Source: an uncultured Actinomycetes bacterium
GTDB taxonomy: Bacteria; Actinomycetota; Thermoleophilia; UBA2241
DNA length: 64,000 bases
Assembly (NCBI GenBank): GCA_963709345.1
Contig: CAVPVX010000011.1
Coordinates: 18,391-82,390, forward strand
Direction: 5' to 3'
This document shows positions 16,216 to 24,420 of the stretch, piece after piece. The notes beneath the pieces were generated by a model, which worked only from the letters and a program-made list of their open reading frames with translations, had not been told where the DNA came from and ran no database searches. A program made the position numbers and the translations under genes. The stretch's first letter is position 1; each line of letters opens with the position of its first letter.

Positions 16216-17256
16216 CTAGAAACGGCCGCCGATCCAGGCGCCTCGACCGTTGAGCGCGCCGTACCGCACGACATCGCCCGTGTGCGGCGCCTCGATGACG
16301 GCGCCGCCGCCGGCATAGATGGCGACGTGGTGACTGAAGCTCGCGTTGCCGAAGAAGACCAGGTCACCGGGGCGCATGTCGCTGAGCGCGACCGGCGTGC
16401 TCTGCTGCTGCTGCACGGTGGCGCCGTGGTACATGTGGATGCCGATCTGGGCATAGCAGTACATGGTGAGACCGGAGCAGTCGAAGCCGCTCGGGCCGGC
16501 GCCGCCCCAGACGTAGGGGACCCCGAAGTACCGCTGGGCGATTGTGATGATCTCGGGGTGACCCGGGCTGTCCGGGTCGACCGGGGGCGGCGTGATGCCG
16601 TTCCAGCTGCTCTGCGCGGCGAGCCGCGCCGCCCGCTCCGCCGCTTCTCTCAGCCGCTTGATCTCCGACTTGATGCCGCGCGTGAGCCGCCGGAGCTTGG
16701 CTTCGAGCGCGAGCAGCTCGTTCTTGTGTTCCTGGCGCTCCGCGACGAGCCTGGCCGCGGCGCGCTTGTCCGCCTCAAGCTTGACGCGCCGGTCCTTGAT
16801 GTCACGCTTGTAGGCGGCGATGCTCTTGACCGTGTCGACATCGCTGTTGCCGAGGCGCTCCATGAGGTCGAGCTGGGTGATGAGGTCGTCGAACGAATCC
16901 GCCTCGAAGAGCACGTCGACGATGCCGACGTCGCGGGTCTTGTAGATGCTCTCGGCGCGCGTCTTGAGCTGGTCGTTCGCCGTCTGCAGATTGCGCTCGG
17001 CGAGCTCCAGTTGCCGCTGGTTCTCGTCGATCTGCTGATTCACGGTGTCGAGCTGGCTGGTGGCCTGGGCGTACTTCTCGACCGCGATCTCGGATTTCAG
17101 GTAGACCTGGTCGAGGTGGGCCTGCACGGCACGCAGACGGGCCTTCTTCTCGGAGATCGGCGACGCCGGCGCTGCCGCGGCTGCGATCAGCAGCACAACG
17201 AGCACGCCGAAGATGGCAGGAAGCGCCGTGCGCAGGGTGCGGGAGCGGTGGTTCAC
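16216..17256 (-). CDS. NlpC/P60 peptidoglycan endopeptidase with N-terminal coiled coil (RipA-like), paralog 1
   Basis: Signal/TM, long coiled coil, C-terminal GVPYVWGGAGPSGFDCSGL ... H ... H catalytic domain. GTG start after AAAGGA. TAG stop. Confidence 0.85.
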   Translation of the reverse strand: MNHRSRTLRTALPAIFGVLVVLLIAAAAAPASPISEKKARLRAVQAHLDQVYLKSEIAVEKYAQATSQLDTVNQQIDENQRQLELAERNLQTANDQLKTRAESIYKTRDVGIVDVLFEADSFDDLITQLDLMERLGNSDVDTVKSIAAYKRDIKDRRVKLEADKRAAARLVAERQEHKNELLALEAKLRRLTRGIKSEIKRLREAAERAARLAAQSSWNGITPPPVDPDSPGHPEIITIAQRYFGVPYVWGGAGPSGFDCSGLTMYCYAQIGIHMYHGATVQQQQSTPVALSDMRPGDLVFFGNASFSHHVAIYAGGGAVIEAPHTGDVVRYGALNGRGAWIGGRF

Positions 17257-17399: not shown

Positions 17400-18452
17400 T
17401 CAGGGCCGTCCGCCTATCCAGGCGTGACCCATGGGGCCGTATCGGACGACGTCGCCGGTGTGCGGCGCGTGGATCATCTGCCCGCCGCCCACGTAGATGC
17501 CGACGTGGGAGCTGAAGCTTGCGTTGCCGAAGAAGACGAGGTCACCGGGCTGCAACGCGCTCAGCGGCACCGGGGTGGTGGCGCGCTGCTGCAGCGTGGC
17601 GCCGTGCGCGAGGCCGACTCCGACCTGCGCGTAGCAGTACATGGTGAGGCCGGAGCAGTCGAAGCCGCTCGGGCTGGCGCCGCCGTACACGTACGGAACG
17701 CCGAGGTATCGCTGAGCGATGGCGACGACCGAGGAGTTGCCGGAACCGCCCGGATCGACGACCGTGCCACCACTGGTGGACCCGCCCGCGCTCTGTTGCG
17801 CCGCCTGGGCGGCCTGGGCCGCGGCGCGCGCCGCGGCCGCCTGCTGGTCCTGGAGGCGCTTGATGTCGGACTTGATGCCGGCCGTCATCTGCTCGAGGCG
17901 GTTCTGCAGGCCGACGATCTCGGCCTTCTGCGTCGCCGCCTCGTCGACCAGCTTGGCGGCGGCCTTCTTGTCGGCGTCGAGGCGGACCCGACGATCCTTG
18001 ATGTCCTGCCGGTAGGCGTCGATGCTCTTGACGGTGTCGACGTCGCTGTTGCCGAGGCGCTCCATGAGGTTGAGCTGCGTCACCAGGTCGTCGAAGCTGT
18101 CGGCGGCGAAGAGGACGTCGACCACGCCGACGTCGCGCGTCTTGTAGATGCTCTCGGCTCGTGACGAGAGTTGCGTGTTGGCGACTTCCAGGTTGTACTC
18201 GGCGACCTTGAGCAGACGCTGGTTCTCGCTGATCTGGTGCTGGACGGTGGTGAGCCGGCTCCTGGCCTGGTTGAACTTCTCGAGTGCGACGTCGACTTCA
18301 TGGTAGACCTTCTGGAGCTTGGCCTGCACCTGGCGCAGCTGTGCTTTCTTGCTGCTGACGGGAGTGGAGAGGGCGGAAGGAACGAGGGTGAGAGAGAAAA
18401 GGATGGCGCCGAGAAAGACGGAGAGGGTGGTGATTCGTCGTGTGTGCTTCAC
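17400..18452 (-). CDS. NlpC/P60 peptidoglycan endopeptidase with N-terminal coiled coil (RipA-like), paralog 2
   Basis: Closely similar to paralog 1 (same coiled-coil and GVPYVYGGASPSGFDCSGL domain). GTG start after AGAGGAGG. The upstream part of the 17400..18812 ORF was discounted. Confidence 0.85.
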   Translation of the reverse strand: MKHTRRITTLSVFLGAILFSLTLVPSALSTPVSSKKAQLRQVQAKLQKVYHEVDVALEKFNQARSRLTTVQHQISENQRLLKVAEYNLEVANTQLSSRAESIYKTRDVGVVDVLFAADSFDDLVTQLNLMERLGNSDVDTVKSIDAYRQDIKDRRVRLDADKKAAAKLVDEAATQKAEIVGLQNRLEQMTAGIKSDIKRLQDQQAAAARAAAQAAQAAQQSAGGSTSGGTVVDPGGSGNSSVVAIAQRYLGVPYVYGGASPSGFDCSGLTMYCYAQVGVGLAHGATLQQRATTPVPLSALQPGDLVFFGNASFSSHVGIYVGGGQMIHAPHTGDVVRYGPMGHAWIGGRP

Positions 18453-18631
18453 TGCATCGCCTCCTCTTTGGGAGTGCCGCCTGGGCGTCACTCCCTCGCT
18501 GAGGTGAGCCCCTTGTGTCTTGCTCTGGTCCTGCCGCACCGCACGTTCGGGCGTCAGACTCACCGACCTCAAGTACGAGACCTTAGCATCCGACCCGGCT
18601 CCTGACAACCGTCGACGCCCGGTCGCCGGCA

Positions 18632-20044
18632 TCACTCCGAGCCGGCGCTCGGGGTCGTGCCGCGAGGGCCTGGGTTCGGCCACATGCGCTTCAGGGCCTG
18701 GATGAAAGCCTTGTTGCGCTCGTCCTTGCGCCAGTTGTGGATGATCACCATGCCCCACCAGTGGAACATGAGCTGCTTGGTGAACTTGAGCGCGAAGATG
18801 TAGCGCAGCCAAGTGCGGATCGAGTAGAAGCGCATGTACCCGCGCAGATCCTCCATCTGCAGCTCGTAGGGGGTCATGAGCTTCGGTTCGAACACGACGT
18901 GGTGCGCGTCGTAGAGGTGCCAGCGCTTGTCGAAGATGCGCCCCGCGGCGTCGAGGTTGTCGTATTGCGGTGTGCCCGGCAGCGGCGTGAGGATGTTCAG
19001 CATCACCGTGTCGATGTGGTTCTTGATCGCGAAGGTCACCGTGTCGCGGACCGTCTGCACGTCGTCGGTGTCGGCGCCGAGCACGAACATGCCGTGACTG
19101 CGGATGTCGTAGTCGTGAAGCTTGCGGATGCCCTCGACGATGTCTTCGACGGTCTGCGCCTTCTCGAAGCTGTCGAGCGTCGCCTGGCTGACCGACTCGA
19201 GGCCGAGGTAGACGAGCTCGCAGCCCGAGTCCCTCATGAGCTCGAGCAGTTCCTCGTCGCGCGTCACGTCGGTGCGCACCTGGGCGGACCAGGGGATGAC
19301 GAGGTCTTCGTCGATCATCATGCGCAGGAGCTTCTTGAGGCGCTTCTTGTCGGCGGCCATGTTGTCGTCGTAGAAGAAGATGCGTCCGGGCCGCTTGTCC
19401 TTGATCTCGGCGATCACGCTCTCGGCGCTGCGAAAGCGGTACTTGCGGCCGAACATCGCCGTCACCGAGCAGAAGTTGCAGGCGAACGGGCAGCCCCAGC
19501 TTGTCATGATCGGGATGGTGGTCAGCCTTTCGCCGCCGACCAGCAGCTTGAGGTCGGGGAAGGGGAGCTCGTCGAGGTCGTCGAGCCGCTCACGGAGTTG
19601 GTTGTGAACGGCTTTGCCGTCACGGCGGAACGAGAGGCCGGCGATGGTGTCCAACTCGCGGTCGCCGGCGAGCGCCTCGATGAGCTCCAGCATGAGCTGC
19701 TCGCCGCCCTCGCCGCGGGCCACGTAGTCGACGTGCTCGAGGGCCTCGTCGGCCATGAACGTGACGTGGGAGCCTCCGATGACGACGGGGATGCCGCGTG
19801 CGCGCAGGTTGTCGGCGTCCTCGTAGGCGGTGGTCGTCGTCGACGTCGTGCTCGAGAGGCCGACCAGATCCGAGGTGTTCACGTCGTCCCAATCGATCGG
19901 CGCCATCTGGGGGTTGTAGACGAGCACATCGTGCCCGTGCGCCTTGAGAGTGGCGGCGATGATCGGCAGGCCGAGGCGCGGCAGAAGGACCTTGGCGTAG
20001 ACGTGCATCCCTGGAGGTTCGGGCTCGATGAGGCGGATCTTCAT
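18632..20044 (-). CDS. B12-binding domain radical SAM enzyme (canonical CxxxCxxC)
   Basis: N-terminal B12-binding-like domain. Radical SAM motif SWGCPFACNFCS. ATG after AAGGAG. Confidence 0.85.
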   Translation of the reverse strand: MKIRLIEPEPPGMHVYAKVLLPRLGLPIIAATLKAHGHDVLVYNPQMAPIDWDDVNTSDLVGLSSTTSTTTTAYEDADNLRARGIPVVIGGSHVTFMADEALEHVDYVARGEGGEQLMLELIEALAGDRELDTIAGLSFRRDGKAVHNQLRERLDDLDELPFPDLKLLVGGERLTTIPIMTSWGCPFACNFCSVTAMFGRKYRFRSAESVIAEIKDKRPGRIFFYDDNMAADKKRLKKLLRMMIDEDLVIPWSAQVRTDVTRDEELLELMRDSGCELVYLGLESVSQATLDSFEKAQTVEDIVEGIRKLHDYDIRSHGMFVLGADTDDVQTVRDTVTFAIKNHIDTVMLNILTPLPGTPQYDNLDAAGRIFDKRWHLYDAHHVVFEPKLMTPYELQMEDLRGYMRFYSIRTWLRYIFALKFTKQLMFHWWGMVIIHNWRKDERNKAFIQALKRMWPNPGPRGTTPSAGSE

Positions 20045-20201
20045 GGCGCTCCTTGAAACGAGGTCTCGGTCGTCGGCCTCTGCGGCGCGGCATGTCGCCA
20101 CGGCACGAAGGACACGGACGCTCAAGTCGAGATGATAGTCGCTGGTCGCGACCCTGAAAAGACTGGGGCCTGGGCGGCGATGGCGGCGCCCATCGGCAGT
20201 C

Positions 20202-20220
20202 TAACGTAATACTTACGTTA
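20202..20220. promoter_or_regulatory. palindromic operator TAACGTAA-tac-TTACGTTA (putative PadR box), copy 1
   Basis: Perfect 8-3-8 palindrome overlapping the TAA stop of the 2TM gene, ~160 nt upstream of the rSAM start. The core ACGTAA-N3-TTACGT is shared with copy 2. Confidence 0.5.
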
Positions 20221-20517
20221 CGAGCAACCGTCGCGGCGCGCGCGCTCCTCACGCTTGCGCTCCTTCTGCTCGCGTTGCAGCAGGATGTCTTCGGGACTCC
20301 GGAGCAGGAAGGCGAAGGCGGCATGCGCGGCGACGACGATGCCCCAGGCTCCCGTGGGGATGACGAACCAGGGGAAGCCGCCGCCGGCGAGCACCCAGAT
20401 CGCGAAGAGGAAGACACTGATCGCGGCCCACACGATGAGATCTAGCCAGAACCACTGGTGGCGGGCTATGCGCACCGCTTCGCGCTCGCGCAAGGCGGCC
20501 TTTCCGAATTCATCCAT
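20218..20517 (-). CDS. 2TM-domain membrane protein (PF13239-like)
   Basis: ATG after AAGGAG. HQWFWLDLIVWAAISVFLFAIWVL ... WGIVVAAHAAFAFLL hairpin of two TM helices. Overlaps the padR stop. Confidence 0.6.
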   Translation of the reverse strand: MDEFGKAALREREAVRIARHQWFWLDLIVWAAISVFLFAIWVLAGGGFPWFVIPTGAWGIVVAAHAAFAFLLRSPEDILLQREQKERKREERARRDGCS

Positions 20518-20977
20518 GCTCGGCTCCTTGCTGCTCGATGATCGTGGTGATTTCGGCGCGCGTGCGCGTGAGGACGGTGTCGATGCACTCGGCCTGCCGG
20601 GAGGAGAGCCCGGCGCGCCGGGGGAGGCCCAGCTCGAAGCGGTCGAGCAGAGTGCCGAGGGTGAGCCGCTGCCGCTGCGCGTCGGCACGCCGGGAGATGT
20701 CGGGCCAACTCGGCTCCGCCTCGCGCGCCTCCACGGCCCGGACGCCCTGGTCTGTCAGGCGGTACACGCGCAGGCCGTCGTGTTCGTCGGAGGTCACCAG
20801 GCCCGATTCCTCGAGCGCGACGAGCGCCGGGTAGATCGCGCCGGGGCTTGGCCGCCACTGCGTACCGACCTGCCGCTGCAGCTCCTGCATGATGGCGTAG
20901 CCGTGGCCTTCGCCGAGCAAGGCGATGACGGAGAGAAGGGCGGACTTGAGCTCGCCGCGGTTGAACACGCGCGTCAT
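20510..20977 (-). CDS. padR: PadR-family transcriptional regulator
   Basis: wHTH LKSALLSVIALLGEGHGYAIMQEL ... GAIYPALVALEESGLV. An alternative TTG start lies at 21016. Confidence 0.8.
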   Translation of the reverse strand: MTRVFNRGELKSALLSVIALLGEGHGYAIMQELQRQVGTQWRPSPGAIYPALVALEESGLVTSDEHDGLRVYRLTDQGVRAVEAREAEPSWPDISRRADAQRQRLTLGTLLDRFELGLPRRAGLSSRQAECIDTVLTRTRAEITTIIEQQGAEHG

Positions 20978-21042
20978 GGGCGGTCCGGGTCGGGGGTGAG
21001 TGCGGGCGCCGGTCAAGCGCCGGGCGCGAACGGCACGACCAT

Positions 21043-21059
21043 AACGTAAGTCTTACGTT
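21043..21059. promoter_or_regulatory. palindromic operator AACGTAAG-t-CTTACGTT (putative PadR box), copy 2
   Basis: Perfect palindrome immediately upstream of padR. Same ACGTAA-N3-TTACGT core as copy 1. Confidence 0.5.
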
Positions 21060-21161
21060 GACGTCAAAGCGTCGGGACTTCCAGGGTGGGGCGGAGGTCG
21101 GCGCCGGTGGCGACTCGGATACCGGCGCCGGCCGCGACGCGGACCACGGCGGGCCGCCAGG

Positions 21162-22145
21162 TCAGAAGATGAGCGTGCCGAGAAGGTAGACCGCCGCGGC
21201 GACGAGGCCTGCCGCGGGCAGCGTGAGCACCCAGGCCACCATGATGTTGCCGGCGACGCCCCAGCGCACGGCCGAGAGTCTCTGCGTCGAGCCGACGCCC
21301 ATGATCGCCGCCGTGATCGTGTGCGTGGTGCTGACCGGGAAGCCGAAGTGCGTCGCGAGTTGGATCACGCTGGCCGCGGCGGTCTCTGCGGCGAACCCGT
21401 GGATGGGGTCGAGCTTGATCACCTTGGAGCCCAGGGTGTGGATGATGCGCCAGCCGCCCGAGTACGTGCCGACGGCCATGGCGAGAGCGCAGGCGAGCTT
21501 GACCCACATCGGGATCTCGAAGGTCTCGACCACGCCGCTCGCGAACAGGGCGAGCGTGATGATGCCCATGGTCTTCTGGGCGTCGTTGGCTCCGTGCGAG
21601 AAGGCCATGAAGCCGGCGGAGATCGGCTGCAGGCCGCGAAACCACTTGTTCACCGGCGCCTGCGACCGCTTGCGCACCAGCCAGATGAGCCCGGTCATCA
21701 GCACCCACGCACCCACGAAACCGAGCAGCGGGGAGCCGATCATCGGCAGGACGACCTTCTCGATGACGCCGCCCCAGAGCACGCCGTCCACCCCGGCGCT
21801 CGCGATCATCGCACCGATGAGGCCGCCGAAGAGCGCCTGGGAGGAGCTGGAGGGGATGCCGAAGTACCAGGTGACGAAGTTCCAGACCACCGCGCCGACC
21901 AGGGCGGAGAAGATCAGGGGGAGGGTGACGAGCTCGGTATTGACGAGTCCTTCGCCGACGGTCTTGGCGACGCCGGTGTAGAGGAGGGCGCCGAGGAGGT
22001 TGAGGCCGGCGGCCATCATCACGGCGATGCGCGGTGACAACGCGCGCGTCGAGACCGAGGTGGCGATCGCGTTGGCGGTGTCGTGGAAGCCGTTGGTGTA
22101 GTCGAAGACGAGCGCCAGGATGACGATCGCGATGAGAAGGGCCAC
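21162..22145 (-). CDS. pit: inorganic phosphate transporter, PiT family
   Basis: PHO4/PiT sequence (FDYTNGFHDTANAIATSV ... GANDAQKTMGII). Confidence 0.9.
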   Translation of the reverse strand: MALLIAIVILALVFDYTNGFHDTANAIATSVSTRALSPRIAVMMAAGLNLLGALLYTGVAKTVGEGLVNTELVTLPLIFSALVGAVVWNFVTWYFGIPSSSSQALFGGLIGAMIASAGVDGVLWGGVIEKVVLPMIGSPLLGFVGAWVLMTGLIWLVRKRSQAPVNKWFRGLQPISAGFMAFSHGANDAQKTMGIITLALFASGVVETFEIPMWVKLACALAMAVGTYSGGWRIIHTLGSKVIKLDPIHGFAAETAAASVIQLATHFGFPVSTTHTITAAIMGVGSTQRLSAVRWGVAGNIMVAWVLTLPAAGLVAAAVYLLGTLIF

Positions 22146-23772: not shown

Positions 23773-24420
23773 GTGTCCGACGAGCTCTACGCACAGATGA
23801 AGCAGACCGTGATCGACGGCGAGGCCGAGGACGCCGCGCGCCTCGCCCAGGAGGGCCTCGACGCCGGCCTGCCCGCCGCCGACATCCTCGACCAGGGCTT
23901 CGTCAAGGGCATCGAGGAGGTCGGCGACCTCTTCGGCCAAGGGCGAGTTCTTCCTCCCCGAGCTCGTCCAGGGCGCCGAGGCGATGAAGGCCGCCGTGGC
24001 CGTCCTGCAGCCGGCCCTCGACGCCTCCGGCGGCGGCCGCAAGGCGCTCGGCATCGCCGTCGCCGGCACCGTCGCCGGCGACATCCACGAGATCGGCAAG
24101 ACGATCGTCTGTTCCATGCTCAGCGCCGCCGGCTTCACGGTCACCGACGTCGGCTGCGACGTACCGGTCGAGACTTCGTTGCCGCGGTCAAGGACTCAGG
24201 CGCCGACCTGCTCCTGCTCTCCGCCCTGCTGACCACGACGATGCCCAACCAGCAGAAGACGATCGAGGCGCTCAAGGAGGCCGGCCTGCGCGACGGCGTC
24301 AAGGTGATGATCGGCGGCGCCCCGACGACCCGCGCCTGGGCCGACGAGATCGGCGCCGACGGCTACGCCGAGGACGCGATCGAGGCCGTGGCCACCGCCA
24401 AGACGATCCTCGGGGTCTGA
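23773..24420 (+). CDS. methyltransferase-type corrinoid (B12-binding) protein, MtbC/MttC/MtaC family, interrupted by two compensating frameshifts
   Basis: N-terminal cap domain (DQGFVKGIEEVGDLFGQG), then the middle part in the +1 frame (ORF 23984: GTVAGDIHEIGKTIV, DxHxxG), returning to frame at FVAAVKDSGADLLLLSALLTTTMP ... GGAPTT. There is an extra G in the ggg at ~23941 and a missing T near 24176. Confidence 0.8.
   Translation: MSDELYAQMKQTVIDGEAEDAARLAQEGLDAGLPAADILDQGFVKGIEEVGDLFGQGRVLPPRARPGRRGDEGRRGRPAAGPRRLRRRPQGARHRRRRHRRRRHPRDRQDDRLFHAQRRRLHGHRRRLRRTGRDFVAAVKDSGADLLLLSALLTTTMPNQQKTIEALKEAGLRDGVKVMIGGAPTTRAWADEIGADGYAEDAIEAVATAKTILGV

Follow-up and report, generated by a model that had tools for sequence, protein, structure and literature searches.

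A repeated promoter palindrome points to one PadR regulon joining a padR-2TM operon and a B12-dependent radical SAM gene in an uncultured Thermoleophilia bacterium

Why would the gene of a PadR-family regulator and the gene of a vitamin B12-dependent enzyme downstream of it be preceded by the same palindrome? The question is raised by a stretch of 64,000 nucleotides (nt) from an uncultured Actinomycetes bacterium of the Thermoleophilia (lineage UBA2241; assembly GCA_963709345.1, contig CAVPVX010000011.1, positions 18,391 to 82,390), which is called the window here and supplies the coordinates used below. Three genes follow one another on its minus strand: padR (20510..20977), encoding a 155-residue winged-helix regulator with a C-terminal helical domain; a gene for a 99-residue two-transmembrane (2TM) membrane protein of family PF13239 (20218..20517); and a gene for a 470-residue cobalamin-dependent class B radical S-adenosylmethionine (rSAM) enzyme (18632..20044). 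The original prediction, made from the sequence of the window, was that two palindromes with an identical core, one upstream of padR and one ahead of the rSAM gene, define a single PadR regulon that covers both transcription units. This proposal is supported by the position of the sites in promoters, their conservation, the link between the half-site and padR, and the lack of a competing target in the searches described below. The two palindromes are probably operators of the PadR protein, from which both promoters would be repressed by occlusion and the three genes induced together.

Both palindromes were confirmed. The padR-side site, O(padR), occupies 21043..21059 and reads AACGTAAGTCTTACGTT, a perfect repeat of 7-nt arms around three nucleotides (AACGTAA-GTC-TTACGTT). 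The rSAM-side site, O(rSAM), occupies 20202..20220 and reads TAACGTAATACTTACGTTA, a perfect repeat of 8-nt arms (TAACGTAA-TAC-TTACGTTA). They have in common the 17-mer AACGTAA-N3-TTACGTT, found at 21043-21059 and 20203-20219. O(padR) lies 65 nt upstream of the padR ATG (20977). O(rSAM) spans the 2TM stop codon, as had been noted, with the TAA at 20220..20218 inside the palindrome; its distance from the rSAM start had been put at ~160 nt and is 157 nt by measurement, the ATG being at 20044 and not at 20045. Two matches to the 17-mer with up to three mismatches occur in the 64 kb, against 0.12 expected, and none of 100 dinucleotide-preserving shuffles reached two; for ACGTAANNNTTACGT with up to two mismatches the window holds two matches against 0.22 expected. 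The hexamer ACGTAA has no copy in the window (G+C content 69.7%) beyond the two palindromes, and no further operator site was found there even at three mismatches. In the window the sites are thus more frequent than expected by chance.

Comparison with other genomes was based on a protein scan with PadR, limited to one genome per species, which gave 80 loci. PadR has many homologues, and those with a name are from metagenome-assembled genomes (MAGs) of Thermoleophilia or Actinomycetota. The 17 closest loci, all from species-level genomes of Thermoleophilia, were chosen by the PadR protein alone (66-88% identical), and the rSAM-side footprint was compared across 18 sequences.

Each palindrome lies within a promoter. 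O(padR) is exactly the spacer of a promoter TTGACG-18-TATGGT (-35 hexamer at 21062..21067, -10 hexamer of the TAnnnT type at 21038..21043, minus strand), which a promoter scan listed independently (21067..21038, 9 of 12 matches). The TTGAC of its -35 is kept in relatives, and in its -10 the T and A never vary and the final T occurs in at least 80% of 14 distinct sequences (the window and 13 relatives). The rSAM side has a matching layout, TTGCTC-18-TAGACT, weaker with 7 of 12 matches and read from the sequence (-35-like hexamer at 20222..20227, -10 of the TAnnnT type at 20198..20203, minus strand), and O(rSAM) occupies its spacer. Relatives have TTGAGT, TTGAAG or TTGACC as -35. The TTG is kept in all 18 sequences if a register shift of 1 nt is allowed, with a spacer of 17 or 18 nt, and the TA and final T of the -10 are likewise invariant (18/18). 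In 12 of the 18 the stop codon TGA of the 2TM gene lies inside the -35 TTGAnn, so that across the clade the rSAM promoter directly adjoins the 2TM gene's end.

All 17 closest loci keep the order padR-2TM-rSAM, and in every one of them the 15-nt core ACGTAA-N3-TTACGT on the rSAM side is exact. On the padR side 13 loci have the exact core and two (L001 and L010) differ from it by one mismatch; the core is degenerate in L013 and lost in L017. Within the rSAM-side footprint AACGTAA, TTACGTT, the A that follows and the last T of the -10 do not vary; around the invariant half-sites the N3 bases and the flanks vary freely, and the surrounding non-coding DNA has diverged. Two further loci found by exact-protein lookup (L139 and L141, PadR 60-65% identical) have the rSAM gene and both promoter-embedded sites with at most one mismatch each, O(rSAM) being kept with one mismatch. 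One lineage, L017 with eight metagenome contigs, has lost the padR-side palindrome but keeps the padR promoter hexamers and an exact rSAM-side operator. As this lineage kept only the rSAM-side palindrome, comparison of the sites suggests that selection acts more strongly on control of the rSAM gene.

The half-site is also tied to padR outside this clade, across Actinomycetota. Among 63 more distant PadR-2TM loci, from Acidimicrobiia, Gaiellales and others (PadR 41-58% identical), 45 have CGTAA/TTACG half-sites within ~135 nt of the padR start. Most of these have two copies 22-25 bp apart, in tandem over padR's own promoter; the layout seen most often has the first copy overlapping the -35 (TTGACGTAA...) and the second ending at the start codon. 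The half-sites are separated by N1 or N2, not N3, and this spacing varies with the PadR clade. Since the half-site accompanies distant padR promoters at spacings that depend on the PadR clade, it is probably PadR that binds it. After the 2TM gene none of the 63 loci has such a site, and the more distant relatives have no rSAM orthologue adjacent to it, in agreement with the original prediction that a link between PadR and a B12-rSAM gene is unusual. As no distant locus has the post-2TM site, the rSAM-side operator, to judge from these loci, is an innovation of the window's lineage. In L066-L080 (Microthrixaceae and Acidimicrobiales) the DNA upstream of padR resembles coding sequence, and an operator-like CGTAATAGTACG lies ~730-760 nt upstream of padR in 11 of the 17 loci L064-L080 (L066-L068, L070, L071, L074 and L076-L080). 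One of these, L074, has a GAF-GGDEF gene after the 2TM gene.

The window PadR is a clear member of its family (PF03551, 58.3 bits against a Pfam cut-off of 27). Its AlphaFold2 model, with a confidence score (pLDDT) of 83.7, shows a winged helix and three C-terminal helices, and the best fold matches in Foldseek are Rv0047c, Rv3488 and Bacillus subtilis PadR, the top matches being PadR-family structures. In B. subtilis PadR, DNA is bound by Tyr20, Tyr42 and a basic residue of the wing, Lys67 (PMC5728393). Y27 and Y49 of the window PadR are invariant in 25 homologues and align with Y26 and Y48 of chain 5X11_A; the equal spacing of 22 residues implies that these are Tyr20 and Tyr42, provided that the chain has a six-residue N-terminal tag. 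R70 is nearly invariant and aligns at Lys68, beside Lys67. Of the 25 aligned homologues, 23 share an identical recognition-helix motif, SPGAIYPAL, and the other two have single conservative changes; such a near-fixed helix fits a fixed half-site.

A search for further ACGTAA-N3-TTACGT sites, suggested with the original prediction for the whole genome, covered the window, the fetched loci and one metagenome scan. No additional operator site was found in ~150 kb of orthologous neighbourhoods. The metagenome scan, with the promoter-operator pattern TTGA-N4-5-ACGTAANNNTTACGTTA, gave 58 stretches: 31 of high G+C content are padR-2TM-rSAM loci, ~21 of low G+C content are chance matches, and six of high G+C content precede operons of ArsR and AHSA1/SRPBCC genes. 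It revealed no other recurrent padR-linked target; since this set was picked by the motif itself, it was not used for conservation statistics. The ArsR-AHSA1 sites are a longer and different repeat, TGTAAC-TTGACCGTTACGTAACTGTTACGTTAC, with no padR nearby (L091:6146-6171, L107:504-529, L113:1271-1296, L125, L131 and L132), and this repeat, immediately ahead of the operon, is probably the ArsR operator, unrelated to padR.

A palindrome that fills a promoter spacer of optimal length is in the classic position for repression by occlusion. PadR-family regulators bind inverted repeats in their target promoters as homodimers, and the window PadR is predicted to do so at the perfect inverted repeats in these spacers. 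Characterised PadR proteins with membrane-protein partners are autoregulated repressors that act on one or two nearby units (PMC6624303, PMC3506622). From the position in the spacer and this precedent we infer that PadR binds and represses both promoters until an inducing signal intervenes. PadR, encoded between the two palindromes, would bind both as operators, each placed where 17-18 nt separate the -35 from the -10 of a housekeeping-type promoter. The first promoter would drive padR and the translationally coupled 2TM gene, and the second, beginning at the end of the 2TM gene, would drive the B12-dependent rSAM gene. A PadR dimer at the operators would exclude RNA polymerase from both, and a signal that releases it would switch on padR, 2TM and rSAM together. 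Candidate signals are a ligand in the C-terminal domain of PadR or a membrane cue that the 2TM protein would relay.

Several observations weigh against this scheme. The whole neighbourhood DUF47-PitA-padR-2TM-rSAM-NlpC/P60-NlpC/P60 is syntenic in the clade, so that gene adjacency alone is uninformative and the argument rests on the non-coding footprint. The rSAM -35 of the window is weak (TTGCTC, 3 of 6 positions), and the promoter scan left this promoter unlisted. The scan did list a promoter-like match of uncertain significance in the rSAM leader, TTTTCA-17-TATCAT (20132..20160, minus strand), 40 nt downstream of the operator-embedded -10; if rSAM were transcribed mainly from there, it would escape occlusion by PadR. 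In relatives its TATCAT is only partially conserved, and in L002, L003 and L008 it lies within an ATCATC...GATGAT inverted repeat. Within the bacterium's own genome, the search for additional sites covered the 64-kb window. The operator AACGTAA-N3-TTACGTT, which equals ACGT-N7-ACGT, is also unlike the ATGT-N8-10-ACAT of other PadR proteins, reported for LmrR and others (PMC3506622); that repeat is typical of the members studied and not a requirement for membership.

The position of O(rSAM) admits a different role. It covers or closely follows the 2TM stop in most genomes, the stretch from 2TM to rSAM has no other terminator-like structure, and its RNA can form an 8-bp hairpin, so the site might mark the end of the padR-2TM transcript, by an RNA hairpin or a protein roadblock, and have no part in rSAM initiation. 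We think this improbable. The hairpin is weak (-5.6 kcal/mol), AU-rich and without a U tract; what is conserved is the sequence and not the pairing, the unchanging half-sites offering no compensatory pairs; it is flanked by conserved hexamers, TTG(A) and TAnnnT, spaced as in a promoter; and the same sequence fills the padR promoter spacer. An intrinsic terminator at this palindrome was rejected, the AU-rich hairpin being followed by GACUGCC and no U tract, and a scan of 18400-21300 found no terminator-like site. Nor is it at all likely that the two sites are a chance coincidence or a recent, functionless local duplication. Their small copy number would fit such an origin, but two sites stand against 0.12 expected, and they are invariant in 17 species-level genomes despite diverged flanking non-coding DNA; we give this explanation next to no credence.

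If the palindromes are functional promoter elements, they might still be bound by a regulator encoded elsewhere in the genome, and the similar string before the six ArsR-AHSA1 operons does indicate that other proteins can recognise repeats of the GTAAC/GTTAC type. Those sites differ from O(padR) and O(rSAM) in length and layout and have no padR beside them, whereas in dozens of genomes, from several classes of actinobacteria, the ACGTAA half-site is found with padR promoters at a spacing that changes with the PadR clade, which makes another binder a poor prospect. There is similarly little likelihood that PadR binds the spacers as an activator in the manner of MerR. The poor rSAM -35 of the window could call for activation, and the PadR-family protein AphA was deposited as 'gene activator AphA'. 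MerR-type promoters typically have spacers of 19-20 nt, whereas the spacers here have the optimal 17-18 nt. Relatives have near-consensus hexamers, such as TTGAGT-17-TATGGT, and the padR hexamers persist in the lineage without the padR-side palindrome, which fits a promoter independent of the protein; the characterised PadR proteins with membrane-protein partners are, moreover, repressors (PMC6624303, PMC3506622). Repression of both promoters by PadR is the reading that we prefer.

The partner of PadR in its operon belongs to PF13239 (40 bits against a Pfam cut-off of 24.8) and has two hydrophobic segments, at residues ~25-45 and 51-70. The padR stop and the 2TM start overlap in ATGGATGA. All relatives keep this overlap, which suggests translational coupling of the two genes. 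At E<=0.01 only PF13239 was matched, and the HAAS families DUF1700, DUF1129 and DUF1048 were not. A single 250-residue protein (P0111), from an ENA contig of 54.8 kb, has both the PadR and 2TM domains, as either a natural fusion or the product of a 1-nt indel in the ATGGATGA overlap.

Many of the distant loci have, in place of the rSAM gene, a third gene that overlaps the 2TM stop and encodes a PF13796 'Putative sensor' membrane domain followed by a C-terminal PadR-like winged helix (Sensor + wHTH). Within the set L018-L063, examples are L040:4733-5548 and L142:2128-3069; the C-terminal ~60 residues are a weak PadR match (PF03551) in L018 and PadR-like by tblastn in L040, and an MMPL transporter gene follows the third gene in L142. 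PadR-2TM-sensor/wHTH looks like an undescribed three-part module; no Sensor + wHTH gene is present in the window. In four loci of a different actinobacterial lineage (L040, L044, L046 and L061) a B12-rSAM gene, 34% identical, lies ~1.1 kb downstream of padR-2TM-Sensor. The region upstream of these rSAM genes is conserved and A+T-rich, with no ACGTAA site and no Rfam match; as no operator precedes the gene, the four loci were not counted as independent support for a link between PadR and rSAM.

The rSAM enzyme has a B12-binding domain (PF02310, residues 19-116) followed by a radical SAM core (PF04055, residues 184-328) with the cluster motif CxxxCxxC as CPFACNFC at residue 185, the arrangement that places it in class B. 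QCMT (9CCB), TokK, CysS and BchE have the same N-terminal B12-binding Rossmann domain and CxxxCxxC core, and 9CCB, the glutamine C-methyltransferase QCMT (PMC12931638), is the closest solved relative (E = 8e-19). Unlike members of the curated class B families, the window enzyme scores far under each NCBIfam cut-off (BchE 173.5 against 481, PhpK 144.5 against 600, HpnJ 140.4 against 578 and MJ_0865/QCMT 108 against 360), and no equivalog was found. Naming the enzyme was rejected, as NCBIfam, the Protein Data Bank (PDB) and PADLOC show generic class B similarity only. Orthologues are abundant and highly conserved, the top 120 clusters all showing at least 75% identity, and no biosynthetic gene that would indicate a substrate lies beside the rSAM gene.

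The predicted 5' leader of the rSAM mRNA, ~147 nt (20045..20191, minus strand), follows from an inferred transcription start. A riboswitch or structured leader, for which a B12 riboswitch was a plausible candidate, was rejected: Rfam gave no relevant match, the fold has a z-score of -0.66, and none of 17 predicted pairs shows covariation among relatives. In a sister clade (L002, L003, L005-L009, L011, L012 and L015) the rSAM leaders share GCCGG-N4-CCGGC, as well as GGGAG...CUCCC adjoining the ribosome-binding site, which it could mask or free. These elements show no covariation and are missing from the window's leader.

How does this circuit compare with known ones? In Listeria monocytogenes LltR (Lmo0599), LstR and LftR are autoregulated PadR repressors, each in tight control of its own operon and at most one neighbouring unit; their operons include small trans-membrane proteins, and a response to envelope-acting compounds has been proposed (PMC6624303). 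They come from another phylum, their partners are not PF13239 proteins, their targets are membrane proteins or pumps and not a cobalamin rSAM enzyme, and no ACGTAA-type operator was reported for them (PMC6624303). Bacillus cereus bcPadR1 (BC4206), with the membrane protein BC4207, forms a self-repressed bicistron of padR and a small-membrane-protein gene like that proposed for the window, and LmrR of Lactococcus has operators both in its own promoter and in the lmrCD promoter (PMC3506622), a two-promoter arrangement like the one proposed for the window PadR. Both are single-domain proteins of subfamily 2, of ~110 residues, whereas the window PadR has 155 residues and a C-terminal helical domain, and their operator is ATGT-N8-10-ACAT and not AACGTAA-N3-TTACGTT (PMC3506622). 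Dyads of HAAS and PadR-like wHTH proteins also join a PadR-like regulator to a membrane-linked partner and have been proposed as an alternative to two-component envelope-stress signalling (PMC11237479); here the partner is a 2TM protein only, to which distant relatives add the PF13796 Sensor + wHTH. The winged-helix fold is common to the window PadR, B. subtilis PadR (5X11) and Mycobacterium tuberculosis Rv0047c and Rv3488, the two-domain build is found in B. subtilis PadR and Rv0047c as well, and the DNA-contacting tyrosines and basic wing residue of B. subtilis PadR are matched (PMC5728393). Identity to these proteins is 18-32%, and a different arrangement of the C-terminal helices holds the TM-scores at ~0.45. 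The effectors of B. subtilis PadR are phenolic acids, and no counterpart is known for the window PadR.

The proposed circuit, in which a PadR that represses its own gene has a membrane partner and one more local target, is well conserved but conventional and no new class of mechanism; its operator is previously undescribed and its target enzyme unusual. A text search on PadR, radical SAM and cobalamin returned no title or abstract opening on such regulation, and the literature on PadR with 2TM or with radical SAM gave no title or abstract describing a padR-2TM-rSAM system. The analysis yields a concrete and testable regulon for an uncultivated Thermoleophilia lineage, with one repressor, two promoters and three genes, and an operator for the widespread, unstudied actinobacterial PadR-2TM family, a CGTAA/TTACG half-site with a spacing of 1-3 nt. 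The lineage-specific capture of a B12-rSAM gene by this circuit hints at the circumstances that call for the enzyme, and growth under conditions that release PadR might serve to induce it and so identify its substrate. A more speculative idea, which we consider unlikely, is that PadR-2TM is a membrane or envelope sensor, accompanied in most Actinomycetota by the PF13796 'sensor' plus wHTH protein and rewired in this Thermoleophilia lineage to induce an envelope-remodelling B12-rSAM enzyme that would, for example, methylate a lipid or cell-wall molecule; if true, it would amount to an undescribed kind of pathway, in which stress induces a B12-dependent modification of the envelope.

Two tandem genes for NlpC/P60 peptidoglycan hydrolases (16216-17256 and 17400-18452, minus strand) lie directly downstream of rSAM. 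Both encode PcsB-type coiled-coil domains and are syntenic in all close relatives, and the scan of 18400-21300 found no terminator-like site at the rSAM end of the gap between them and the rSAM gene. On the plus strand, a gene for a corrinoid (B12-binding) protein at 23773-24420 is divided between two reading frames: one encodes the cap domain (PF02607) together with the C-terminal part of PF02310, and the N-terminal part of PF02310, with its DIHEIG motif, is in an open reading frame at 23984-24232. This arrangement implies two compensating frameshifts, and the gene is either a pseudogene or affected by assembly indels. Broken-up genes are likewise seen in several of the related MAG loci.

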